From the NCBI GenBank assembly GCA_963757355.1, contig CAVWRG010000003.1:2818165-2882164 (forward strand): DNA of 64,000 bases, written 5' to 3'. Shown here one piece after another: positions 5,550 to 58,174 of the stretch. A model generated the notes under the pieces. The model saw only the letters and a list, made by a program, of their open reading frames with translations. It had not been told where the DNA came from and did no database searches. Origin of the DNA: an uncultured Acidobacteriota bacterium (lineage in GTDB: Bacteria; Acidobacteriota; Vicinamibacteria; Vicinamibacterales; CAVVIG01). The translations under genes and the position numbers were made by a program. Numbering within the stretch: position 1 is the stretch's first letter; the number at the start of each line of letters is the position of its first letter.

Positions 5550-5927
5550 TTCGTTCCCCCTACATGCATTTGAGCGAACGCTCAAGAACTTCAGACTCCA
5601 CGCCCGTGGGTGACAAACGATGTCGATGGCATGCGACATCAGATAATCTGCAACTCGTTAGTACAAGCCATTAGCGGCATCATGCGGTACACGTCGCCAG
5701 AACGTCTGTGATCGAGGAGAACCTGAGTGAAGTTGTCCAGATGTCAGTAAGCGCATTCGCATCGCCGTTAGGATTTCTCATCATTGACGATGCTCGCTCG
5801 CGCAGCGTGCCAATAATGTGCGGCTCCGAGAAGGAATCGGATCGCGGGGCGTCAAGAACAGGTCCGCGTCTGTCAGGGTGGTTGACGCGATTGAGGTCGA
5901 CTGTGACGTAGGACATAGTATGTCATG

Positions 5928-5950
5928 CTCAGGTTAAATGTCTACCCAAG
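5928..5950 (+). promoter_or_regulatory. PadR1-type operator copy followed by mini-ORF MSTQEATQRHKADRR* (5938-5985)
   Basis: CTCAGGTTAAATGTCTACCCAAG vs CTCGGGTTAAATGTCTACCCGAG at 16420 (21/23). Confidence 0.7.
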
Positions 5951-5988
5951 AAGCCACGCAACGACATAAGGCCGACAGGCGCTAGCGC

Positions 5989-11938: not shown

Positions 11939-11995
11939 GTCAGGTTGACATCTGACCTGAGTGTACGCGATTCTCGGGTGACATGTCTACCCAAC
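11939..11995 (+). promoter_or_regulatory. Dual inverted PadR1-type operator pair
   Basis: GTCAGGTTGACATCTGACCTGAG (11939-11961, contains TTGACA), 11-bp gap, CTCGGGTGACATGTCTACCCAAC (11973-11995). Confidence 0.75.
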
Positions 11996-12075
11996 ACGGC
12001 CGGCTTGGGGCCTGTTACGTGCCGGCAGAGCGCGCGGTGCGCTCGGATTCGATGATCGCGCTGAGAGACGAATAG
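11983..12075 (+). pseudogene. In-frame fusion of a PadR N-terminus to an ADOP permease C-terminus (deletion scar)
   Basis: MSTQHGRLGACYVPAERAVRSDSMIALRDE*; tail matches [21 protein letters not shown] of the permeases in this window. Confidence 0.75.
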
Positions 12076-15480: not shown

Positions 15481-15537
15481 GTCAGGTTTGACGTACGGCC
15501 TCAAAATACCGATACTCGGGTGAAGTGTCTACCCGAG
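15481..15537 (+). promoter_or_regulatory. PadR1-type promoter/operator module
   Basis: TTGACG (15488) - 17 bp - GATACT (15511); CTCGGGTGAAGTGTCTACCCGAG (15515-15537) overlaps the GTG start. Confidence 0.75.
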
Positions 15538-16352
15538 TCACATGGGGTCGGATCGAGTGGCCGAGCGGAAGCCGTCGTTCGATCGACCTCGACCTGCCCT
15601 ATGGTGGCCAATCAATTGTGTACTTCGACCGCCCAGGTCCTGAGGTGCCGATTCTGTTCGTGCACGGCCTGGGGAATGCCGCCGCGAATTTCGAGGAGAT
15701 GCTCGAACAGCCGGCGCTGGAGCAAAATCGGCTGGTTGCGCTCGATCTGCCCGGTTGTGGGCAGAGTCCGTATCCGTCCGATCACGCACTCGACATCGAT
15801 GCGCTGGTGTCGATCGTGGAGGGCTTTCAAGAGGCAGTCGATCTCGGGCGGCACCTGATCGTCGGTGCCAGTATGGGAGGCCTTGTCGCCCTTCTCTGTG
15901 CCGAGCGTCACCCCGAACGTCTCGTCGGCTTCCTGAACGTGGAGGGCAACCTCGCGCCCGAGGATTGCATGTTCTCGCGTCTCGTCGTGCCGCATTCCTT
16001 CGACGAGTTCAATCGCGAGGTCTTCCCGCGGATAAAAAAGGATCTACAGGCTCAGGACGGACGTGGCCCTGCCAGGCATCTTGGCGTGCTCGCCGCCGCC
16101 AACCCTCGGGCCTACTATGACTTCAGTTTTCAGACGGTCTCATATTCCGATGAGGGAAGACTGCTCGACCGATTCGTGGCGTTGCCGACTCGGTGTCACT
16201 TTGTCTATGGGTCGATGAACCGTCATCTCAGTTATCTTTCGCGCCTGCGGCGGTCGGCCTGCATCGTCACGGAGATTGAGGGAGCCGGCCATTTCCTGTT
16301 CTACGACGCGCCTGAGTATTTTGCGATCGCCGTCGCGGCAGCTGCGCGATGA
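15525..16352 (+). CDS. Alpha/beta hydrolase
   Basis: ILFVHGLG, ALDLPGCGQS, GASMGG, GAGHF; start uncertain. Confidence 0.9.
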   Translation: MSTRVTWGRIEWPSGSRRSIDLDLPYGGQSIVYFDRPGPEVPILFVHGLGNAAANFEEMLEQPALEQNRLVALDLPGCGQSPYPSDHALDIDALVSIVEGFQEAVDLGRHLIVGASMGGLVALLCAERHPERLVGFLNVEGNLAPEDCMFSRLVVPHSFDEFNREVFPRIKKDLQAQDGRGPARHLGVLAAANPRAYYDFSFQTVSYSDEGRLLDRFVALPTRCHFVYGSMNRHLSYLSRLRRSACIVTEIEGAGHFLFYDAPEYFAIAVAAAAR

Positions 16353-16385: not shown

Positions 16386-16442
16386 TTCGGATTGACAGGC
16401 TACGCGAAGAAGCTTCATACTCGGGTTAAATGTCTACCCGAG
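16386..16442 (+). promoter_or_regulatory. padR1 promoter with autoregulatory palindromic operator
   Basis: TTGACA (16392) - 18 bp - CATACT (16416); palindrome CTCGGGT-N9-ACCCGAG (16420-16442) covers the ATG at 16430 (leaderless-type geometry). Confidence 0.8.
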
Positions 16443-16780
16443 ATACCAAGGATCGACTCGAACTGCTGCAGGGCACCCTCGACCTGTTGATCCTGCGCAC
16501 GCTGCTCTTCGGACCGCAGCACGGGCAGGGCATTGCGCGCGCCATCAAGCACACGTCGCTCGAGGAACTGCTCGTGGAGCATGGGGCACTGTATCCTGCC
16601 CTTCAACGGCTCGAAGACCGCGACTGGATCCGCGCGAAATGGGGCACTTCGAAGAACAATCGTCGGGCCCGGTTTTATGCGCTGACGCCGGCCGGGCGCA
16701 AGCAGCTCGTGCGCGAGACGACGAAGTGGAAGCGTCTCGCGACCGCCATCGGCCGCATCCTGGGATCCGCAGCGAGTTAG
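16430..16780 (+). CDS. PadR family transcriptional regulator (acidobacterial type), PadR1
   Basis: [11 protein letters not shown]...HGQGIA...[11 protein letters not shown]...[11 protein letters not shown]. Confidence 0.95.
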
Positions 16781-32316: not shown

Positions 32317-32424
32317 GATGTCTCTCCTCCACCTCGCCTGGGCCCGCCCATCGATCTGCAAGCATTCAGATTGCTACGGACGGTCGAGGCGAGCTCTCTG
32401 ACATCGGTCGGAGTATCCGTAATA

Positions 32425-32447
32425 CTCGGGTAATATGTCAACCTGAG
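32425..32447 (+). promoter_or_regulatory. PadR1-type operator copy (reads MST*)
   Basis: CTCGGGTAATATGTCAACCTGAG, overlapped by AATACT; lies between the divergent ADOP and oxidoreductase genes. Confidence 0.75.
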
Positions 32448-32510
32448 TCGCGCGTTTCACCTTATACTTGGCGGCAACCTGCACGGACTTCATCCCGTCT
32501 AAGCCGATCA

Positions 32511-35624: not shown

Positions 35625-35681
35625 CACAGATAGACGCCTGACCCAAGGCTACGCCATGCTCAGGTAATATGTCTACCCGAC
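35625..35681 (+). promoter_or_regulatory. PadR1-type dual operator module
   Basis: Inverted weak site ending ...GACGCCTGACCCAAG (35647), 11-bp gap, CTCAGGTAATATGTCTACCCGAC (35659-35681). Confidence 0.75.
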
Positions 35682-36095
35682 AGCTATCGAGCCGTCGACA
35701 GACTTCACGGAGTCGATCGCGTCTCGGCCGACTCCGCCGGCCAACAGTGCGATCTCGAAAACTCACACGCGTCGAGCAAGAACGGATTCTCGAAGACATC
35801 GAGGCGACGAGCTTTGACACGCCGGATTCCTGGTTGGATGAACTGCGCGTGAGGCGCGTCTCGTTGGGCGACGCCGACGGCCTGGTGATCAGGGCAACGC
35901 GACTCCTCTGTGGAGCGACCGGAAACTGCGAGACGTGGGTGTTTCGACACGCGGCGGGCAAATGAGTCAACGCTCTCGACGGTGAGGCCCCCGTCGCGTC
36001 AAGCATCGGTTGTGTTCGACAGACCGCCGGAACCAAAGACCTGGTCATCACGGCGAACCAGTCCGCGTCAGCCGAAAGGTGGACGCAGTACTTTG
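35669..36095 (+). pseudogene. Hypothetical gene with internal stop, next to the IS insertion
   Basis: LCGATGNCETWVFRHAAGK*VNALDGEAP...KDLVITANQSA; TGA at 35963 probably from TGG. Confidence 0.55.
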
Positions 36096-38063: not shown

Positions 38064-40760
38064 TGCCGCACGAGCCGCGCACCGTCGACGGACGCATCGA
38101 GCGCGATGTGGACGATGAGATCGCGTTCCACATCGAGAGCCGCGTGAGCGCGTTGGTGGCGCACGGACAGTCGGAAGCAACAGCGCGGCGAATGGCCGAG
38201 GCCGAGTTTGGCGACGTCCGCGCCTCACGGCGCGAGCTCACCTCTGTGGACCGCCATCGGCGGCGGCGCGAGCGGATCACGCAGTGGCTCGACGCGGCCG
38301 CGCAAGATGTCCGCCACGGCGTCCGCTCGCTTCGACGGTCGCCCGCGTTCACGATCGCCGCCGTGCTTACGCTGGTCATCGGCATCGGGGCCAGCGTCGC
38401 GATCTTTGCGGTCGTGGACGGCGTGCTGCTCCGTCCCCTCCCATATGGAAATCCCGAACGGCTCGTTGCCGCCTGGCACGACATGCCGTCAATCGGGTTG
38501 ATCCACCAGCCGCAATCGCCGCCGACCTACTTCACGTATCTCCGGCTCGCGCGGACCATCGAGGGTATCGGCGTCTACCGCGAAGGCGAAGTGAACGTCG
38601 CCGACCCTCGCGGCGGCGTCGAGCCGCAGCGTGTCATCTCGGCATCGATCTCGGCGACTCTCATTCCGGTGCTCCAACTGCCGCCGATCCTCGGCCACGC
38701 GTTCACCGACGCCGAAGATCGCCCCGGCGCACCGCCCGTCATGCTCATCGGTGAGGCGATGTGGCGCGTGCGTTTCGGCGCCGATCCCGGCATCATCGGC
38801 CGCCGGCTCGATGTGAACGGTGTCAGTCGTGAGATCACGGGTGTCCTGCCGGCGCGCTTTCAGATGCCGACCGCCGCGACCCAGCTGTGGATGCCGCTCC
38901 AGCTCGACGCCGTCAATCCGCCGGCCACGGCATTTGCCTACAACGCCATCGTTCGCCTGAAGCCTGGCGTGACGGTCGCCGACGCGCAGCGCGATTTCGC
39001 GGCGGTGCTCCCGCGGGCGCCAGATGTCGTGCCGCTGTTCGTCCCCGGTATGTCGACGCGGCAGATCATGGATCAGGCGCGGCCAACGCCCGTGCTGGTG
39101 CCGCTGCGGGCGGACATCACGAGCGGAATCGCCGGGACGCTCTGGGCGGTTGCCGGCGCCGCGGCGCTGTTGCTGCTTGTCGCCTGCGCCAACGTCGCGA
39201 ACCTGACGCTCGTGAGGGCCGACGCCCGTCAGCGTGAACTCGCCGTCCGTGACGCGCTCGGCGCCGGGCGCGGACGGATCGCGCTGCACTTCGTGACCGA
39301 GTCCGCGATTGTCGCGGCGGTCGCGTCCCTGATCGGACTCCTGCTCGCGGCGGCTGCGGTCCGAGCCTTCGTGAGCGGAGGACCCGCCGGCGTCCCGCGA
39401 CTCGCCGAGGTGCGCATCGACGCGACGACCATGCTGTTCACACTCGTCGTCGCCGTGTTCGTGGCGATGGCGTGCAGTCTGATGCCGGCGATCCGCGCGG
39501 CGCGCGGCGCTCTCGCGATCCGCGAGGGCGGGCGGAGCGGCACGGCTGGGCGCGGTCAACATCGCTTACGCGGCGGACTGGTGGCGGCGCAAATCGCGCT
39601 CGCGCTCGTGGCGCTCTCGGGGGCCGGCCTGCTGGTGCGGACGTTCCAGCGTCTCAACGCGATCCATCCGGGCTGGAATCCCGATCACGTCTCGACCTTC
39701 TGGCTGTCGCTGCCCCGCGCCACCTACCAGACAGACGCGTCCGTCGTCCAGTTCTACTCGCGGCTGGTCCAGCATGTCGCCGCGCTGCCCGGCGTGCAGA
39801 CGGTCGGGCTGACATCGCGGCTGCCGCTCGAGGCGCACGGGGTCAATCCGAACCCGCTCTATCCCGAAGACGATCCATCGGTACGCGACCAAGCTGCCGC
39901 CGCTGCAACTGTTCGGCGCCGTGAACGGCGATTACTTCCGCGCGATGGGCATCCCGCTGTTGACGGGCAGGACCTTCGATCAGATAGAGGCGCAGCGCGA
40001 GGGCGACGCGATTATCTCGCGCCGTACCGCGGAGGTCTTCTGGAAAGACCCGACGGGCGTCGCCGCGTTGGGAAGGCGCTTTCGCCCGTTGCCGACGGCC
40101 CGCTGGTATACGGTCATCGGCGTTGTTGGCGATACCCGCGAGACAACGCTCGCCGGCGAGCCCTCACAGGCGGTGTATTTCCCGCTGACAGCGGAGCCGA
40201 AGACGCTCGCGACAGGGCAGCGCACGCTGGCGCTGGTGGTTCGCACGACCGGCGAACCCACGTCGATTGCTCCGGCCGTGCAGCAAGCCGTGCGCGAGCT
40301 CGATCCGACCCAGCCCATTTTCGACGTGCGGCCGATGACGGCGGTGTTCAGCGCGGCGACCGCGCAATTGTCGTTCATCATTCTGCTCCTCGGCGGCGCC
40401 GCGGCGGTGACGCTGATGCTCGGCGCCGTCGGACTCTATGGTGTGCTGGCGTACGTGGTCACGCTGCGCCGACGCGAATTGGGCATTCGCATGGCGCTCG
40501 GTGCCTCACCACGCGCGGTGGCGATGGCGATGACGCGCTATGGCGTCGCGCTGACCGGCGTTGGCATCATGTGCGGGCTGGCAATCTTCGCGCTCGTCGC
40601 GCGATTCCTGCGCCTGCTGCTGTTCGGCGTGGCGCCGAGCGATCCGCTCACGCTCGGCAGCTCGGCGCTGATTCTCGTCGCGATTGCGATGTTGGCGAGT
40701 TGGGTGCCGGCACGACGGGCGGCGCGCGTCGATCCGGCAGACGCGTTACGGGCCGAATAG
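38063..40760 (+). pseudogene. ADOP permease with +1 frameshift near 39880 (real or sequencing error)
   Basis: TGATG coupling to padR3; removing one G in TCGGTAC restores PEDDPSYATKLPPLQLFGAVNGDYF and joins ORF 39921-40760. Confidence 0.85.
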
Positions 40761-46752: not shown

Positions 46753-46853
46753 TGGCGCGCCCGGCCCGCCTTCGTTCATGAACAACGCAGAACTTCGGCG
46801 CGCCTCGGGTGGCCTGCCAACCATAGCTCGCCTAAAAATCCGTGAGCGAAGGT
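46753..46853. repeat. ~100-bp palindromic micro-element in the att/tRNA 3' end
   Basis: TGGCGCGCCCG duplicated (46753, 46854); hairpins CGCCTTCGTTC..GAACTTCGGCG and GCCAACCATAGCTCGC..GTGAGCGAAGGTTGGC. Confidence 0.6.
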
Positions 46854-46897
46854 TGGCGCGCCCGCAGTGACTCGAACGCGGACCCCCGGCTTAGAAG
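46854..46897 (-). repeat. tRNA-Arg 3'-half duplication (att site)
   Basis: TGGCGCGCCCGCAGTGACTCGAACGCGGACCCCCGGCTTAGAAG nearly identical to 58098-58142; ends at the anticodon loop. Confidence 0.9.
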
Positions 46898-47858: not shown

Positions 47859-47950
47859 GCCGATTTCGGTCAGGATGCTGACATAATCCGGTCCGCCATC
47901 CAGCGATGGCACTCGCGAGTTTAGTCGTGACTAAAATCCAAGCGCATGAC
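47859..47950 (+). repeat. 92-bp direct repeat, copy 1
   Basis: 76/92 identical to 50848-50939 by manual alignment; contains palindrome TTTAGTCGTGACTAAA. Confidence 0.9.
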
Positions 47951-50847: not shown

Positions 50848-50939
50848 GCCGATTTCGGTCAGGATGCCGGCGCAGTCCGGTTTGCCATCCAGCGAGGGCA
50901 CTCCCGATTTTAGTCGTGACTAAAAATTCGGCACATGAC
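50848..50939 (+). repeat. 92-bp direct repeat, copy 2
   Basis: See copy 1; TTTTAGTCGTGACTAAAA at 50908-50925. Confidence 0.9.
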
Positions 50940-51038: not shown

Positions 51039-52238
51039 TTAAGGATTACCGGTAGAGCGACGCAGATTTGGCCACATGTTTTCAATGACTGCCCAGCCTA
51101 GATCGGTGGCGTGCATGCCGAAAGCGTCACCACCTGCAACCGCTCCAGGTGCGTAGTCGGTCCACAGCAGTTTCCTATCGCGCAGCTCGCGGGTCGCGGC
51201 ATCAAATCGTGAGCGACCGTCGGCTCCGTCGAAGTGCGGCCCGAGATTTCCAGCATGAAGCGAGTTTGCGATGTGTTCGCGCTGCAGCCGACCGTACCAG
51301 TTCAGAGCCAAAATGGCCTCCGGGCTCAAAGTTCTCGTGACCGTATGAAGATTGTCTTGGGCCTCCTTCCGCTCTGGTTCACGTGACTTCTGCGTGGGCG
51401 TAGCCTCACCGAAAATGCGGACAAGGTCTCGCCCACGATCCTTGGCATCGTACGCGGCTGTATCCGCCGCCGTCTTCAGTCCGGCGAAGTCGGTAGCGTG
51501 AGTCGGGAACATCGCGACACCGATGCTAAGGCTTACAGGCAGCGACCGGGACGTGAGCGGTTGGCGATTCACAGCGATTCTTAGCCGTTCAGATATAACA
51601 ACCGCCTCAGGTTCTGAATAATTCGGAAGGACAAGTGCGAACTCGTCGCCTCCAACGCGGTACGCCGTTCCCTTGCCTTTGACGCACGCTTGAGCAATAT
51701 CAGCGATGGCGCTTAGCGCCTCGTCGCCAGTGTCGTGACCGCCGTGATCGTCGTTGATGCTCTTGAAATGGTCGACGTCAAACCAGATCAGTGCCAGTTC
51801 TTCGCCGGCTGTGCGAGCACTTTCAACGAAGCTTCGTAATTCATCGTCAAACGCCCGGCGGTTTCTTAATGGCACAAGAACATCGACCATGGCCGCATCG
51901 ATCTTCGTGGTTGGAAATGCCTCGCGGTCTGCAGGACCTCTTCTAGACAGTTCGATGCGTAGGTCCGCATCGAGCATGTCCCAGATCACATGTGCTTGAT
52001 CATAGGCTGGAGCCCCTGCCCCTTGGCAGCTGGCCATGATTGCCGACGCTTCTGCCATCGCGGCTCGGATTTCATCCACCGTTTGTGGTCGAGGTTCCGT
52101 CACGACATAGCCACGGTAGTCCTGCTTCTGAATCCATTTCCGCTCGTCTGGACACTGTTCCAAAACGGCCCTCAATTCCCGAATTTCGCGCCGCTGATGT
52201 AGTGGCGTCGGCTGTCCAACTCCCACGCGGAATTGCAC
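51039..52238 (-). CDS. GGDEF diguanylate cyclase with extra C-terminal domain (start may be GTG ~52103)
   Basis: NRRAF, DVDHFKSINDDHGGHDTGDEAL, YRVGGDEFAL, SIGVA. Confidence 0.88.
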   Translation of the reverse strand: MQFRVGVGQPTPLHQRREIRELRAVLEQCPDERKWIQKQDYRGYVVTEPRPQTVDEIRAAMAEASAIMASCQGAGAPAYDQAHVIWDMLDADLRIELSRRGPADREAFPTTKIDAAMVDVLVPLRNRRAFDDELRSFVESARTAGEELALIWFDVDHFKSINDDHGGHDTGDEALSAIADIAQACVKGKGTAYRVGGDEFALVLPNYSEPEAVVISERLRIAVNRQPLTSRSLPVSLSIGVAMFPTHATDFAGLKTAADTAAYDAKDRGRDLVRIFGEATPTQKSREPERKEAQDNLHTVTRTLSPEAILALNWYGRLQREHIANSLHAGNLGPHFDGADGRSRFDAATRELRDRKLLWTDYAPGAVAGGDAFGMHATDLGWAVIENMWPNLRRSTGNP

Positions 52239-52258
52239 TCCGGATCGTCCGGCAGGCC

Positions 52259-54430
52259 CTAAGCGCCAGGGCTGATGGCCTCGAGTTCCTCGTCGTCGAT
52301 CAGGCGCAAAGTCGAAGCCCCTTTGCTAAGGCGAAAGGAGACGAGCAAGATATCGTTGGCGTCTGCCCCCCGTCGAGCCAAGAATGCGTTGTAACCATAG
52401 GATGTTCCTTCGGTGTTGATTCGAACAATGCCTGCGTCAGTGCCGCTTTCGTCCGTCGCTGGGAATTCCCGTCCGACAACGAAACGACGAATGGCCGACG
52501 GAATTCCTAACACAAAATGGGACGGGAGGTCTGGAAGCCTGGCCGCTAGCCAGAGATCACCGCGTTCGGTCCAACCGTGGTCGATGATACGTTTTTCGTT
52601 GGGCCTTGACGCGTTTGCTTCCCGAAGGGCCTCGACGGCGGCCGCATCTAGTCTGGTTCCTCGCAATGACCACATGTCGGTGCCGACGTGGGCGATAACG
52701 GGGCTCGCTGTCAGGTACTGAGAGAACGTGTTCGGATTCATCCCCAACTCGGTGCAACTTCTGGCCAAACTGGCACGGTCAAGTAAGCACGCTGGCGATG
52801 ATCGAAGGACCTCGAAGAGAACGCGTTCCGTCGGATTCAGTTCGCTGGCGTACTCGAGCTGGCCGATAGAGCCAACATAGCCGCCGGCGTCAATCGAGAA
52901 CTCGGGATGAACGCGATAGAACTCCTGAAGAACGGCACGGGGTGGTGTCACAAGAGACCACGAACCCATGCCGCGCGTTCGGCGTATTTTGTAGTGGCGA
53001 TGGACGCCCTCCCGAATTTCACCGACGGGAATAGGCGAGGTCACAGACAGCATTTTTCGGGTGACGTTTCGCAAGCGGTTCCTATCCGGGATGCCGGCTT
53101 TGTACCAAAACCAATCCTCATTCAAGAATTCGATTTCCTGGCAGTCTTTCAGCAATCGTCGGACTCTCTGATGGTCGGCGTCGGAGTGGCCTCGAGACGC
53201 TAACTCCGTTGCCACCTCCTGCACGTTGGTGGCACCAGAAGCCTCCGCCTGGCGACAGGCTACGGACAACGTAGCCCGTTCAAACTCCAGCCTCTGCTCG
53301 ACAATCACGCGCGGCAGTCCGACCGAGCTCTCGAGTTCGAAAGGCTGAGGTCGGCCGCAGAATTCGGCAACTGCCAACAGGCTCTTTGGGTGGAAGGGGC
53401 GCGAACTGATGCTCTTGGCTTTGAGGAGTTCTGCGGCGCGGTCGACGCCTATGGGAGCAGCCTGTCGAAGCGTTCGAATCGCCTCATCGAGTTGAGGCAT
53501 GAAAATCGGGTGGTTCGGCAACCGACCAGTAAACTTCGTTTGAATCTGCCGCATTCGTTCTCTGGTAACACCCAGTATTGAAGCTGCCTCCTCCAAGGTT
53601 GCCGGTTCCTCACCGTCGCATCCGAGACGACGCACAAGCGCTCGGAGTCTTACGCCATTGTGCCGTGTCAATTGCGCCACGAGGTCTTCCAGAGCCACGT
53701 CAAGTGGAACCTGTGACAATCTCGTCAGCCTTTCCCGCACGGCGATCAGCGACCGCGCCAATTGCATCTCCGCGAGTGGAGGGTCTTCCGGCTCCGCGGT
53801 CAGTTGCTCCAGTCGTTCGAAGATGGTCAGGTGCCCGGGAGGAAGTAGATCCGAGAATCGCGGATCCTGGTTGCTGATCTGTCCGGACCAAACGGCATCA
53901 ATTGCCTCGAGCAACTGCGCGGCAGGATCGTCGCACACCGGCACTCCTTCCCTCATAGCCTGGTGCGTCGGCGTCAAGGCAGCCTCTGCCACACAAGCGA
54001 AGTCGAGAACTGAAGCTGCGCCCAGGGCTGGAATCGACAGTAAGTCTCCGAACGACATGTTGGAGAGGCGGGAAATATCTGAAAGGAGCCCCGCATTTCG
54101 GAGGCAATTACGAGTGCGACTCGACCAGGGCAGGAACGCAGGATCCAGTGAGCGTGGCAAGGGCCGTACGAACACTTGAAGGTCGGCAATGGGCAAGCGC
54201 CGCATAGAGATGACGTTGATCAAGAACCTTCGGACTGATTCTGGGAGTTCGTCGTGGCGACAGCGCAACCATGCGCCGACATCAAGTGCGGAAAACGTCG
54301 CATCTGGCTCGAGGCCCAGCTCGAGCGCAACCCACTGCGGCACAGCCTCAACATCCCAAAGCATGCGAAGGCTTTCCGGCAGGAGGGGGCATCCTCGTTC
54401 GCCCCACGCCGGTATTCCTAGGTTTTCCAT
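52259..54430 (-). CDS. Multidomain protein with RNAP alpha-CTD-like and sigma70 region-4 HTH domains
   Basis: SSRTRNCLRNAGL...FGDLLSIPALGAASVLD (alpha-CTD pattern); RRLGCDGEEPATLEEAASILGVTRERMRQIQ (sigma-4 pattern); no sigma region 2 seen. Confidence 0.8.
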   Translation of the reverse strand: MENLGIPAWGERGCPLLPESLRMLWDVEAVPQWVALELGLEPDATFSALDVGAWLRCRHDELPESVRRFLINVISMRRLPIADLQVFVRPLPRSLDPAFLPWSSRTRNCLRNAGLLSDISRLSNMSFGDLLSIPALGAASVLDFACVAEAALTPTHQAMREGVPVCDDPAAQLLEAIDAVWSGQISNQDPRFSDLLPPGHLTIFERLEQLTAEPEDPPLAEMQLARSLIAVRERLTRLSQVPLDVALEDLVAQLTRHNGVRLRALVRRLGCDGEEPATLEEAASILGVTRERMRQIQTKFTGRLPNHPIFMPQLDEAIRTLRQAAPIGVDRAAELLKAKSISSRPFHPKSLLAVAEFCGRPQPFELESSVGLPRVIVEQRLEFERATLSVACRQAEASGATNVQEVATELASRGHSDADHQRVRRLLKDCQEIEFLNEDWFWYKAGIPDRNRLRNVTRKMLSVTSPIPVGEIREGVHRHYKIRRTRGMGSWSLVTPPRAVLQEFYRVHPEFSIDAGGYVGSIGQLEYASELNPTERVLFEVLRSSPACLLDRASLARSCTELGMNPNTFSQYLTASPVIAHVGTDMWSLRGTRLDAAAVEALREANASRPNEKRIIDHGWTERGDLWLAARLPDLPSHFVLGIPSAIRRFVVGREFPATDESGTDAGIVRINTEGTSYGYNAFLARRGADANDILLVSFRLSKGASTLRLIDDEELEAISPGA

Positions 54431-54491
54431 GTTCAATAAAGCATTCTTCAGTTAAGGAAGATGCCGATATGGTATCATGTCAAGCATTTTT

Positions 54492-55109
54492 ATGGCTAAA
54501 AAATCGTTGACATCTACGACAACAACGGCGGAGTTGGTGACCTGGGCGGTGTACATCCTCGGAGGCGACCAAAAGCGTATTGATACGGAAGACGTGGCGG
54601 TCAAGGCGTTTGAGCTGGCGCCGAAGCGCTTTAGTTGGCGCAAGTATCCCCAGCAGATCAACCTCGAGCTGGTGCGTGTCTACCTTTCAGACGCAAAGAA
54701 AGCTGAACACGGCGAGCTTCTGACAGGCTCCGGGAGGACCGGCTGGTCGCTAACGCGGAAAGGCTTGGCTTGGCTTCGCTCGGCCCGGTCGAAGCTCCAG
54801 TCACTTGGAACGGACGAACCGCAGAGGCGTGAGTCCCGAGCCGGGTCCGTCGATTCAAGTCGCCGCGACCGCGAGCGCAAGCGCATTCTGTCCCTTCCCG
54901 CTTGGGCGCGGTGGTCCCAGGGTGAACGATCGGTTGTTCTCGCGGAGGCGCGAGAGGTGTTTCGACTTGACAGCTATTCAACGTTCTCAGTTCGCGAGGG
55001 GAAGCTCACGCGACTGCGCGCCATGTTTGGGGACGACGATGAGCTGAGTCCGTTCTTGACGCGCCTTTCGGACGAGATTGACAAGGAGAAGATCGATGGC
55101 CCGAGTTAA
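54492..55109 (+). CDS. Hypothetical protein with N-terminal winged-helix-like domain
   Basis: AVYILGG...DTEDVAVKAFELAP...GWSLTRKG; stop overlaps the ATPase start. Confidence 0.75.
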   Translation: MAKKSLTSTTTTAELVTWAVYILGGDQKRIDTEDVAVKAFELAPKRFSWRKYPQQINLELVRVYLSDAKKAEHGELLTGSGRTGWSLTRKGLAWLRSARSKLQSLGTDEPQRRESRAGSVDSSRRDRERKRILSLPAWARWSQGERSVVLAEAREVFRLDSYSTFSVREGKLTRLRAMFGDDDELSPFLTRLSDEIDKEKIDGPS

Positions 55110-56742
55110 TGACATGAAAGTCACGTCCCACGTTGGACGGGACCTGTTGGCCTCAGCCGCGGCGTTCAAGACAGAGGCGGCGGCGGTTTGGGAATACGTG
55201 GTCAACGGGCTTCAGTACGTCGATCGAGGCACCACTCCTCGCATATCCGTCAGCGTCAGCCAAGCTGACCGTGCGATTGCGATCAGCGACAACGGTCGGG
55301 GGATGGCCGACAAGGATCTCCAGCACTTCTTTACGATGCACGGCGAGAACGTTGATCGCCTCGCGGGTCGGGCCGGCCGCGGGAAGTTTGGCACCGGAAA
55401 ATCTGCCGCGTTCGGCATTGCCACACTTCTGCGCGTCGACACCGTCAGGGATGGCCTTCGCAACGTGGCCGCGTTGACGCGCGACATGATCGAACGTTCG
55501 GGCGGTAAAGAAATAATTGTTGACTGGTTGGCACGAAACGAACGGGTTGATTCACCAAACGGCACCACGGTCTTCATCGAGGGCGTCTTGCTCAGGCAGA
55601 TCCGAACGGCGCCGATCATCGAGTACATAGAGCGCCACCTTCAAGCGTTTCGGGCAGTGGCTCCAGAGGTCGCCGTCAACGATCATGTCTGCGCCTACCG
55701 AGAGCCCGAGATTGAGGCGCAGCACAGATTCGAACCGTCCCCCGAACAGGCTGAGATACTGGGCCCCGTAAGCTTACTGATCAAGGTCGCGCGCGCCCCA
55801 CTTCCGGAGGCCGAACAAGGAGTCATCATAACGGCCGGACTAGGGAACCTGGTGGCCGTTGAGAGGGCCGGCACCGAGAACAAGGAGTTCGGCACGTACC
55901 TGTTCGGGGAGATCGATGTCATCGCCCTCGACAACGCCGCGATCCCCATCGCACCCTACGACTCTAGCCGGTCGCTGCAGCTCAATCTGGAGCACCCGGT
56001 GGCAAGCGTGCTAATCGGATTCATCGGCTCGAAGCTCGAACAGGTTCGAGCCGATCTCGTGCGGCGCGGCAAAGAGGCTCGCAAGAGCGAGCAGGCGCGT
56101 CGACTTGAAGTTCAGGCTCAGAAGATAGCCGAGTTATTGAATAGCGATTTCAATAGTGTTCGAGACCGCTTGACGAGCATTAAGACCGTCGCAGCGAAAC
56201 CAGGTTCGGCAGGTGCTCGATTTGGAAGCGGCACGACGGGAGACGATAGCCCGGATTCCTGGGTGAGTGGAACGCAACAGAGGGGAAAGCTTGAGCGTTC
56301 ACGGAAAGACCCCAGCCCCGGCGAGGGCCACGGGCGAACTGCACCGCACGTCGCGGTGTCAGGAGAACCGAATCGAGATGGAAAGGACCCGATCGACCCG
56401 GCTGGCTCAAGTGAAGGAGCTCGCCGTCGTCCGAGAGGTGGTTTTCAAGTTGTTTACCGGAATCTTGGTCGAACCGAACATCGGTCGCGTTATGAGGAGC
56501 GCTCGTTGAGCATTCTGATCAACCTGGATCACCCAGTGCTGTCGGCAGCCATTTCAGATGGCAGCGTGGAGGAGGCAGGTGTTCGTCGGCTTTCCTACGA
56601 GATTGCTTTCAGCGAGTACGCAATGGCCCTCGGATACGAACTTCTGAAGCAAGACCCCAACATGCCGGCTGACGACCTCTTGTACGAGGTCCGGTCCAGC
56701 CTCAATCGAGTTGCACTTTCGGCCGCTCCGCTTTATCGCTGA
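55096..56742 (+). CDS. GHKL/MORC-type ATPase
   Basis: Bergerat motifs EYVVNGLQ, ISDNGRGM, GKFGTGKSAA, NGTTV; AAGGAG RBS. Confidence 0.9.
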   Translation: MARVNDMKVTSHVGRDLLASAAAFKTEAAAVWEYVVNGLQYVDRGTTPRISVSVSQADRAIAISDNGRGMADKDLQHFFTMHGENVDRLAGRAGRGKFGTGKSAAFGIATLLRVDTVRDGLRNVAALTRDMIERSGGKEIIVDWLARNERVDSPNGTTVFIEGVLLRQIRTAPIIEYIERHLQAFRAVAPEVAVNDHVCAYREPEIEAQHRFEPSPEQAEILGPVSLLIKVARAPLPEAEQGVIITAGLGNLVAVERAGTENKEFGTYLFGEIDVIALDNAAIPIAPYDSSRSLQLNLEHPVASVLIGFIGSKLEQVRADLVRRGKEARKSEQARRLEVQAQKIAELLNSDFNSVRDRLTSIKTVAAKPGSAGARFGSGTTGDDSPDSWVSGTQQRGKLERSRKDPSPGEGHGRTAPHVAVSGEPNRDGKDPIDPAGSSEGARRRPRGGFQVVYRNLGRTEHRSRYEERSLSILINLDHPVLSAAISDGSVEEAGVRRLSYEIAFSEYAMALGYELLKQDPNMPADDLLYEVRSSLNRVALSAAPLYR

Positions 56743-56788
56743 GTGAAGTGTAGAGAATCGCGCGAAAGCCGTGGCGGCCAAACGCATC

Positions 56789-56875
56789 TACCCACGTGCT
56801 GACCCACTCGAACTGGCTACCCACGCCAAGCGGGAAGGGTTCTGACGGGGTGGGGCTGCGCCGATTGGCTAGGAA
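56789..56875 (+). repeat. Internal copy of the island A right end
   Basis: ACCCAC repeats with the same 12/17-bp spacing as 57968-57997; GGTTCTGACGG and GCCGATTGGCTAGGAA shared with 58028-58085. Confidence 0.8.
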
Positions 56876-57336
56876 CCGGCAAGCGGGTGCTGCCGGTTCC
56901 GGAAAGTTGCCGAAACGAGCCACGGGAGATCGGCGGATCGAGCACGACTGGGTGAGCGCGCTCGCGGGCACGGTCGTACGCTCTTGTCAAGTCTGCCGCT
57001 GATCCCGAGGTCACCTGTGGCGGACTTTGCCAAGGGGGTAAAGGGCGAAACGTCAAATCGTTTGGTGCGATTTTGCCGACTACGCGCCGAACTCGCCAGG
57101 TTCCTGTACGCGCTGTGTGGACTCAACAGGCAAGGAGGCGTTCATGATGCGAGTTCTCTTGTCGCTTGCTGCTGTGAGTCGGTTCAAACGCCCGGTTCTC
57201 CGTCTTTTTTTGGTGTTATCGTGCGGCGTGACGCTTCGGCGCAGACCTGCATGGGCGGCCCGACCATCACCGTGCGACTCGCTAGCAATCGACCATTTGT
57301 TTGGTAGCAAGACGCTCGAGAAAGGACAACCCTCAC

Positions 57337-57672
57337 ATGGCCAAGAAAGTCCGAAAGTCGTCGTCTCTGGTCAGCAAGTCGTCGGTCGCCTCGAACAAGA
57401 AGTCTTCGGGCGTTACCTCCGGGACGAAGATGCCTGCGAGCGCGAAGCAGTCCGTCACGAGGGGACTGATCGCGCGGGGTCAGCGGGCCGCAGCAGTGGC
57501 AAGCGGAAAGAGAGCCATTGCGAATATGAAGATCAACGCGACAAAAGCGGAAGCGATCATCGAGATGGCAAGGAAGGGTAGATGGCCCTCCGAGGAATTG
57601 AACAACATGCTGAAAACCCTTGGCGAGACGAGCAACCCGACCGCTGAGAAGACTACCGCAAAGAAAGCATAA
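57337..57672 (+). CDS. Small Lys/Ser/Ala-rich basic protein
   Basis: AAAGGA RBS; MAKKVRKSS...EKTTAKKA. Confidence 0.65.
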   Translation: MAKKVRKSSSLVSKSSVASNKKSSGVTSGTKMPASAKQSVTRGLIARGQRAAAVASGKRAIANMKINATKAEAIIEMARKGRWPSEELNNMLKTLGETSNPTAEKTTAKKA

Positions 57673-58097
57673 TCTGGGAAAGGGACAACGATCATGCAGA
57701 ATGATGGACCTCGTTCGAAAGCGTCGATCAAGCGTCCATGGATTGCGAGACGAAGTCGACATTCTCGATCGCTTCGTCAAGTCTCCGCGAGCCATCGATT
57801 TCAGCTTGGCCTTCCTGACCATCTCGTTCGGACTGATTGATGCCCCTTCGAGCCAGCGTTGAATCTGCAGCACAGTGACTTCATGTTTCACGGCTAAGTG
57901 CGCGTTGGGCTCCAAGTAGTGGCGGTGGAGGAACGAACGCGACCAAGTTGGCAGCATTTCGGCACTCTACCCACGCGGTTACCCACGCGAACCCCGTACC
58001 CACGCGCGTACCCACGCAACTCGGACAGGTTCTGACGGCTTCTGACCGAATACGACGGAGTGGGAATGTGCCGATTGGCTAGGAAATCCGCAAATAT

Positions 58098-58174
58098 TGG
58101 CGCGCCCGCCGCGACTCGAACGCGGGACCCCCGGCTTAGAAGGCCGGTGCTCTATCCAACTGAGCTACGGGCGC
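58098..58174 (-). tRNA. tRNA-Arg (anticodon UCU)
   Basis: GCGCCCGTAGCTCAGTTGGATAGAGCA-CCGGC-CTTCTAA-GCCGG...GTTCGAGTC...CGGGCGCGCCA; 77 nt with encoded CCA. Confidence 0.97.

Follow-up and report, generated by a model that had tools for sequence, protein, structure and literature searches.

What might a protein assembled from RNA polymerase (RNAP)-like parts be doing next to a GHKL ATPase, in a mobile island and with no recognised nuclease or methylase at hand? This question is raised by a block at positions 51039-56742 of a 64,000-nucleotide stretch of DNA from an uncultured Acidobacteriota bacterium (contig CAVWRG010000003.1, positions 2,818,165 to 2,882,164; the whole stretch is called the window below). 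A first-pass annotation, made from the letters alone, had proposed the block as a four-gene defence module. We find that the conserved unit consists of three genes, A, B and C, not four, and that this cassette is real, conserved and unnamed. As to its function, we tentatively favour, at somewhat less than even chances, a self-contained, nuclease-free defence cassette that would grip promoter DNA in order to silence or compact the promoters of invaders. All four open reading frames (ORFs) of the block are intact:

52259-54430, minus strand: gene A, a multi-domain DNA reader of 723 amino acids, from domain and fold evidence
54492-55109, plus strand: gene B, 205 amino acids, an N-terminal winged helix and a helical C-terminal domain
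55096-56742, plus strand: gene C, a GHKL ATPase of 548 amino acids
51039-52238, minus strand: GGDEF gene with its motif intact, a passenger

The gap between A and B, estimated earlier at about 60 bp, measures 61 bp (ATG at 54430 to ATG at 54492), and the overlap of B with C measures 14 bp.

A conserved three-gene unit

Using C, we found 55 loci in the Genome Taxonomy Database (GTDB), among them two near-duplicate pairs (L027/L028 and L048/L049), and A, B and C stand together in 50 of them; of the remaining five, four run off a contig end and L045 carries C alone. The titles of these loci span at least 11 phyla. Gene order is divergent, as here, in 39 of the 50, A>B>C in seven and B>C>A in four, and hence the linkage survives rearrangement. 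A reverse search of metagenomes with A gave 70 loci. Of these, 56 extend at least 250 nt upstream, and 51 of the 56 have B; 45 extend at least 1200 nt, and all but one of them (44) have C. The homologues do therefore co-occur, a point on which the first-pass annotation had made its module depend. In independent phylum samples, the family is found in about 1% of genomes (B in 6/401, C in 4/401 and 5/401, counts that include the centre genome). New complete loci (L216, L239, L240 and L241) carry all three genes and L242 carries B and C, while five weaker B matches have neither A nor C within about 8 kb, so that more distant B-like proteins are also found by themselves.

The GGDEF gene does not belong to this unit. 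Its domain is recognised by Pfam (E 1e-35), and a tblastn search of 126 loci found no GGDEF gene near the core in any of them, the only matches being two of 33% identity in a single locus, some 6.5 kb past C; neither its N- nor its C-terminal extension matched anything in these loci or in the rest of the genome. We therefore take it as a passenger, and its membership of the module is ruled out by this search. The earlier view of two divergent gene pairs as one module fails, because A, B and C travel without the GGDEF gene, and the nucleotide signalling suggested with it is left unsupported. What stands is a conserved, mobile, unnamed module of polymerase-like reader, winged helix-turn-helix (wHTH) protein and GHKL ATPase.

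The cassette appears to be under strong purifying selection (pN 0.09-0.20 against pS 0.68-0.78 in comparisons with two relatives, synonymous sites being saturated). Split genes were seen in about 8 of the 55 loci, some with an inserted element. In a genome of the same family (L208:9106-10017, G023:C91), the 3′ end of A is fused directly to the 3′ half of C, a deletion remnant.

Gene A and the site at its junction with gene B

The domains of A, by residue, are as follows:

about 95-150: alphaCTD-like HhH (RNAP alpha C-terminal domain)
about 245-305: sigma70 region 4 (sigma4) helix-turn-helix
about 381-595: tandem winged helices
about 620-715: predicted B3/EcoRII-N pseudobarrel

Sigma70 region 4 was recognised by Pfam (E 1.8e-5) and is present in 68 of 70 members, and the alphaCTD gave E 0.005 with the single A protein and E 5.9e-10 with the family profile against RNAP alpha. 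In the AlphaFold model of A (pLDDT 91, pTM 0.51), the winged helices at 381-525 are like those of SelB (Z 9.8, rmsd 3.5, 116 aligned), with another at 526-595, and residues 620-723 match LlaJI.R1-N (Z 7.8, rmsd 3.3, 98 aligned), followed by At1g16640 (Z 7.5), VRN1 (7.2), EcoRII-N (6.8), FUS3 (6.8) and RAV1 (6.4); Foldseek gave the B3 region a probability of 1.00 to 1yel and 6j9b. Although each Z is below 8, these six relatives agree, and for this reason we predict a C-terminal B3/EcoRII-N pseudobarrel. The earlier domain calls are thus borne out by different routes: GGDEF, sigma4 and GHKL by Pfam, alphaCTD by family profile and wHTH by fold.

The residues expected at DNA are strongly conserved. 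The alphaCTD arginine of A (R105) that aligns to the arginine of SVRSYNCL, which is R265 in E. coli numbering (PMC3326320), and the HhH glycine are present in all 64 aligned members. In the sigma4 helix, T-R-E-R-x-R-Q (T289, R290, E291, R292, R294, Q295) is kept in 67-70 of 70 members per position. Only nucleic-acid-binding folds were found in A. With conserved DNA-contact residues and a matching conserved site in the control region of its own gene, A resembles above all a DNA reader, and not only a protein-surface decoy.

The first-pass annotation had seen in A a sensor mimicking the RNAP surface; we prefer a DNA reader and keep the decoy as the main rival. Sigma4 and alphaCTD are well-known targets of phage proteins. 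On this account, both domains would be baits for phage proteins attacking the host RNAP, and A, once bound or modified, would leave its operator or change shape, so that B-C is induced or activated and the infected cell arrested. The number of alphaCTD copies in relatives, from none to four or five (P0327, P0333, L026, L216), varies as it does in integrated decoys, and the conserved site described below would suit a trippable autorepressor. However, the conserved residues are the DNA-facing ones, a bait needs none of A's four further DNA-binding domains, and no toxic effector domain was identified in A, B or C, so we consider a decoy acting as guard rather unlikely. It can also be combined with the silencing that we favour, as a phage anti-sigma factor sitting on A would lift repression.

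The architecture of A varies elsewhere. In a low-GC Pelagibacteraceae single-cell genome (L054:9399-13307, order B-C-A), region 4 is very sigma70-like and an extra winged-helix-like domain stands at the start of A in place of the alphaCTD. An actinobacterial variant (L031, L035, L038, L039, L040, L053) has two A-like genes upstream of B, one with sigma4 and no alphaCTD and the other a shorter wHTH+B3 form; its control element differs, being a direct repeat of about 14 bp, GTAGTAAGTGTGCG-like, with a period of about 25 nt, downstream of TTGACA.

Two elements were found at the A/B junction of the window:

54478-54512: candidate operator, a TGTCAA-N23-TTGACA inverted repeat with T- and A-tracts in the spacer
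54470-54478, plus strand: extended -10-like TG-N-TATCAT, missed by a strict promoter scan and likely to be the promoter of the B-C transcript

The right half of the candidate operator consists of an A-tract and a consensus -35, has no -10 and lies inside the codons of B. TGTCAA-N23-TTGACA has its sole exact copy in the 6.55-Mb genome here, as expected for such an AT-rich pattern. We then surveyed 47 non-redundant divergent loci. The density of TTGAC/GTCAA is 12.5 per kb across the A/B junction compared to 2.4 per kb in the gene bodies, and both orientations occur in 39 of the 47 loci (shuffles: mean 1.3, maximum 4). TTGAC stands at one fixed position in 42 loci, with A as the sixth base in 39. 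Within these 42, A occupies -8 to -4 in 29-38, a second A/T tract lies at -21 to -15, CAA is found 23 nt upstream of TTGAC in 32, and a -10 at 16-18 nt behind it in none. In most loci, the site takes the form of an inverted repeat. The position of the A-tract matches the proximal UP subsite near -43 beside the -35 (PMC3326320, PMC4390567). On the A side there are 20 instances of a mirror copy (GTCAA, 22-24 nt, TTG); that of the window is degenerate.

Read in frame, TTGAC-A encodes Leu-Thr in B, with Leu as TTG in 39/39 and Thr as ACA in 36/40, compared to 1/34 to 13/32 for TTG and 5/28 to 9/41 for ACA in control conserved columns of B; the fourfold sites of B are saturated (median identity 0.27). 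A constraint on the protein is ruled out by this codon control together with the absence of the site from co-linear copies, and an ordinary internal promoter is ruled out by the lack of a -10 in all 42 loci. In summary, a UP/-35-like site without a -10 is under selection at the DNA level, and it is predicted to be what the alphaCTD-sigma4 protein should bind. This conserved site in the A/B control region is new in this analysis.

Genes B and C and their surroundings

The winged helix of B (residues 8-106, pLDDT 92) has a best Z of 8.7 (rmsd 2.9, 83 aligned), tied with many matches of the MarR/PadR type. The B family, with 658 clusters at 50% identity (E<=1e-10), is entirely without annotation, having no match in Pfam, NCBIfam or PADLOC. 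Among 13 longer matches scanned, there were one DUF6508 fusion and tandem wHTH forms, and no nuclease fused to B. The gene has an alternative in-frame ATG at 54477. Two unrelated loci, one of which has neither A nor C, carry a second unannotated family of about 200 amino acids immediately upstream of B (L043:8789-9412 and L218:7990-8583, 26% mutual identity).

Gene C consists of a GHKL domain, a presumed S5 domain, a coiled linker and a conserved C-terminal domain without a recognised nuclease motif. Pfam identifies the GHKL ATPase (E 4.9e-13), with HATPase_c_3 above its cut-off; the Bergerat-fold motifs (ExxxN, DxGxG, GxxGxG, GT) are intact, and E33, N37, D65, G69, G96, G99, G101, G156 and T157 are invariant in 36 diverse members. 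Morc6_S5 is carried by 20-27% of the members in C's Atlas neighbours, which is a lead only. The C-terminal domain has no PDB profile match. As the first-pass annotation had noted, no methyltransferase or nuclease is recognised: none was found in A, B or C, and the scanned loci hold no fixed partner of this kind. Fold searches of A and B, in which the C-terminal half of B was barely covered, gave no sign of a cryptic nuclease, nor did PDB profile searches of B, the C-terminal domain of C and the third winged helix of A, and such missing matches do not amount to the exclusion of one.

The complex prediction for B with C gave 0.44, compared to 0.00 for the best of three controls, with at least 78% contact agreement between runs and a partner pLDDT of at least 78. 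The mark used was reached by 116/157 solved pairs and 2/215 mismatched pairs; passes at or below 0.60 came from just 18/157 solved pairs and from both mismatches, and are more often wrong unless the complex is likely beforehand. Here it is likely beforehand, because B and C are adjacent, and the model weakly suggests a B-C complex.

Neighbouring genes were surveyed in 52 loci, after removal of three duplicates or fragments; of 260 candidate ORFs selected within 3.5 kb, 252 were scanned. Recognised defence genes lie near 21 of the loci, or 27 with looser counting, and include Eco57I-like and type ISP restriction-modification (R-M), XhoI, McrBC, GmrSD, SIR2 and a Schlafen helicase, as well as Cas1, HNH, HepT, HipA and ABC-3C CTD7. 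In a control of twenty evenly spaced 7-kb host windows, there were one clear and two doubtful cases. This gives Fisher p values of 0.004 (21/52 versus 1/20), 0.052 (21/52 versus 3/20) and 0.007 (27/52 versus 3/20), to be read with a control of one genome and 61 ORFs, a stricter E-value and lossy gene calling on its side, and with related loci that are not independent. The proximity to defence genes that had been proposed as a check is thus found, and these neighbours, together with the tRNA island, suggest a defence role for the cassette.

Could the cassette instead be an accessory of R-M? C would then be a paraMORC-type looping ATPase, with A and B as its readers, aiding a nearby or distant nuclease or methylase, and the copy here would be an orphan. 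According to PMC2292703, R-M operons are the main setting in which the MORC/paraMORC ATPases of prokaryotes act; furthermore, the N-terminus of C matches BbrUII-type restriction endonucleases (REases; E 2e-10), 19 of 36 C members match a PADLOC REase_II model, and the C-terminal fold of A is EcoRII-N/LlaJI.R1-like. An Eco57I-like methylase is a repeated neighbour of the cassette (one BLAST cluster of 8 loci), and one copy of the cassette, B-C-A and co-directional, lies between an SNF2 helicase-nuclease and a DUF1156 methylase in a DUF499 restriction-like operon (L216:1-14816, G394). However, the REase matches are limited to the shared GHKL region, and a methylase lies near just 11/52 loci, of several unrelated types. 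Among the loci there is no fixed nuclease, helicase or methylase partner, and no partner family in more than 8 of 55. Many copies are intact between housekeeping genes, and strong purifying selection is seen in copies without R-M neighbours. Had the cassette always been an accessory of an R-M locus, this would have refuted the module of the first-pass annotation; it is not, and we regard this role as decidedly unlikely.

In loci L024, L027/L028, L033, L042 and L242 (Chloroflexota/Actinomycetota), the Eco57I-like methylase is accompanied beside the cassette by an unannotated partner of about 300 amino acids, likely a restriction endonuclease, and a DndB-like gene lies upstream in L024 and L242.

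The block itself had been placed in a tRNA-integrated island, next to an island-end repeat, and both features are found:

58098-58174, minus strand: tRNA-Arg(TCT), the site of integration
46853-46897: direct repeat of the tRNA-Arg 3′ half, 43/46 identical to 58097-58142
56787-56875: degenerate island-end copy just past C, matching 57966-58005 and 58054-58085

The tRNA-Arg 3′-half repeats at 46853-46897 and 58097-58142 delimit an 11.3-kb segment, and from the sequence 46853-46897 appears to be its far end; the copy at 56787-56875 is likely the scar of an earlier tandem insertion. The block is less GC-rich than its surroundings, as had been noticed (0.585 versus 0.64/0.68 in the flanks and 0.651 in the genome), and its third-position GC is 0.58-0.69 versus 0.76-0.86 in the flanking permeases. 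One genome of the same genus matches the right flank at 96% and is without the block. The description of the region as otherwise decayed is partly right, as the segment also holds a cupin and an intact ABC permease ORF. Three integrase queries found no integrase in the 11.3-kb segment; their sole match was a 46-residue fragment of a phage integrase arm-binding domain at 40082-40216, which suggests an older nested island further left.

The cassette appears to move horizontally, and integrases or transposases flank several copies. This, together with domains that are all DNA binders or ATPases and a conjugative plasmid that has a distant A-like XRE fusion and neither B nor C, would fit a non-defence role as a selfish or island-maintenance module (repressor, addiction or chromatin-like) that regulates or organises the DNA of a mobile element. 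Against this, pattern scans of IMG/VR gave 362 matches for C, none confirmed, and for A only matches of sigma4 length and no full-length relative, which also rules out a phage origin; 72,556 plasmids gave one distant match each for A and C; there is no fixed link to an integrase or a replicon; and defence neighbours are enriched. We consider a non-defence role the least likely of the accounts weighed here. On a Rhizobium megaplasmid (L222:7941-10619), a distant C (28%) is followed by a 360-aa ORF that resembles the wHTH+B3 end of A by eye; it was not counted as A (E 0.19, missed by the A profile). The gene after a Rhodoferax A-like protein is not C-like.

Other features of the window and the genome were recorded as follows:

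57301-57672: basic ORF of 123 amino acids between C and the tRNA, Lys/Ser/Ala-rich, of histone-like composition and no family
47859-47950 and 50848-50939: a 92-bp sequence in direct repeat (83%) with a palindrome around GTCGTGAC; one copy is upstream of the cupin/permease region and the other downstream of the GGDEF gene
5923-5965, 11968-12014, 15512-15556, 16415-16461, 32422-32466 and 35654-35700: six copies of an imperfect palindrome of about 25 bp (CTCGGGT...TGTCTACCC), likely operators of PadR-type regulators for the many ABC permease genes
G000:C3:660107-660184, elsewhere in the genome: a second tRNA-Arg(TCT), divergent in sequence

A possible mechanism and its relation to known systems

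On the reading that we favour, the predicted DNA targets of A are A-tract + TTGACA sites, bound by its alphaCTD and sigma4 domains, and back-to-back alphaCTD-sigma4 units of A on the candidate operator would repress both promoters of the cassette. B would bind C and thereby link the GHKL ATPase to A-bound DNA, where C may close as an ATP-gated clamp, which is typical of GHKL+S5 engines (PMC2292703), and so block transcription or compact the DNA. Phages or other elements entering the cell would be met by the same reading of DNA, at their strong sigma70-type promoters. Silencing is the output suggested by analogy with eukaryotic MORCs, and silencing or compaction is preferred because the unit is without a nuclease or methylase. 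More doubtful, though possible, is a bacterial, nuclease-free counterpart of MORC silencing in full, in which UP/-35 would be the mark of aggressive foreign promoters to which the GHKL clamp is recruited, and the -10-less decoy in the cassette's own first codons would keep it repressed until titrated or tripped by infection.

Several points weigh against this silencing mechanism. A reader of consensus -35/UP elements would meet host promoters too, and no mark of self or non-self is evident. The conserved site shows how the cassette is regulated and not what it attacks, and B, which is also a wHTH protein, could be its binder. The TTG may itself serve as a start codon, and in many loci the left half shares bases with the start codon or transcription start. 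This explains part of the conservation, though neither the ACA nor the exact complementarity found in the clade of the window. No strong copy of the site was seen in the 16 co-linear or A-less loci and seven alphaCTD-less divergent loci inspected, and hence it is a clade feature. D31/E33/D34/K51 retained in B, and the invariant polar residues R463, N476, D478 and E502 in the C-terminal domain of C, may each be part of a cryptic catalytic site. Finally, no recognised defence gene was found near 25 to 31 of the 52 loci.

The usual view is that the MORC-like ATPases of prokaryotes assist the nucleases of restriction systems, whereas their eukaryotic descendants silence mobile DNA. If the mechanism is true, a GHKL ATPase with DNA readers and no nuclease would be a direct model of a clamp that works without cutting, and promoter recognition would be added as a means of detecting foreign DNA. 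The long-predicted alpha/sigma mimics would also gain a concrete candidate binding site, defined by a 35-bp sequence and a handful of residues.

How does the cassette compare with known systems? We found no description of the three-gene unit in a literature search that most subscription journals lay outside. Searches of PADLOC and NCBIfam with A, B and C matched no system, their hits being limited to the GHKL/sigma4 regions and far below the cut-offs, which agrees with the first impression that the locus fits no standard system. It shares with prokaryotic MORC/paraMORC1-5 an N-terminal GHKL domain with intact motifs and a C-terminal extension, a sporadic wide distribution and insertion in mobile hotspots, and a VP1/RAV (B3) protein is encoded in one type of MORC operon as well (Iyer, Abhiman, Aravind 2008, PMC2292703). 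In contrast, the strict MORC S5 motif GhXhhpXXRhl (PMC2292703) is found in 0/36 C members, the SF2 helicase, nuclease and/or methylase of MORC/paraMORC R-M operons have no fixed equivalent here, and partners like A (alphaCTD-sigma4-wHTH-B3) and the unnamed wHTH protein are not described in the accessible text of that paper.

As in the anti-phage system MZA (MzaABCDE), a sigma70-like protein is paired with a MutL/MORC-like ATPase (PMC9523054). The MzaA profile gave 26.7 bits against a cut-off of 800 (sigma4 only, at the C-terminus of the model) and MzaB 12.7 against 850; none of the MZA partners Z1, PD-(D/E)xK and AIPR was found among the flanking ORFs scanned, nor Z1 or AIPR in the window block. 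With GHKL enzymes of the BbrUII/HgiDII type, C reaches 39.8 against 550 bits over residues 12-170 only, with no full-length match.

In 2012, Aravind and Iyer reportedly described alphaCTD + sigma + HARE-HTH 'polymerase mimic' proteins, proposed to occupy promoters and inhibit RNAP. These proteins resemble A in joining alphaCTD HhH repeats, a sigma4 helix-turn-helix and then winged helices in one chain. HARE-HTH (PF05066) had no hit in 70 A members (E<=0.05) or in the genome; the winged helices of A were recognised by fold, and one weak Atlas neighbour has HARE-HTH (score 0.77). A differs in adding a C-terminal B3 fold and in its obligate B-C partner.

Finally, in eukaryotic MORC1-4 and SMCHD1, a GHKL clamp is likewise recruited by DNA or chromatin readers, and mobile DNA is silenced by compaction (PMC2292703; bioRxiv 10.64898/2026.09.30.754977). 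The similarity of C to these proteins is detectable in the GHKL region only (MORC3, E 0.36) and the MORC motif is absent, and the readers here are polymerase-derived.

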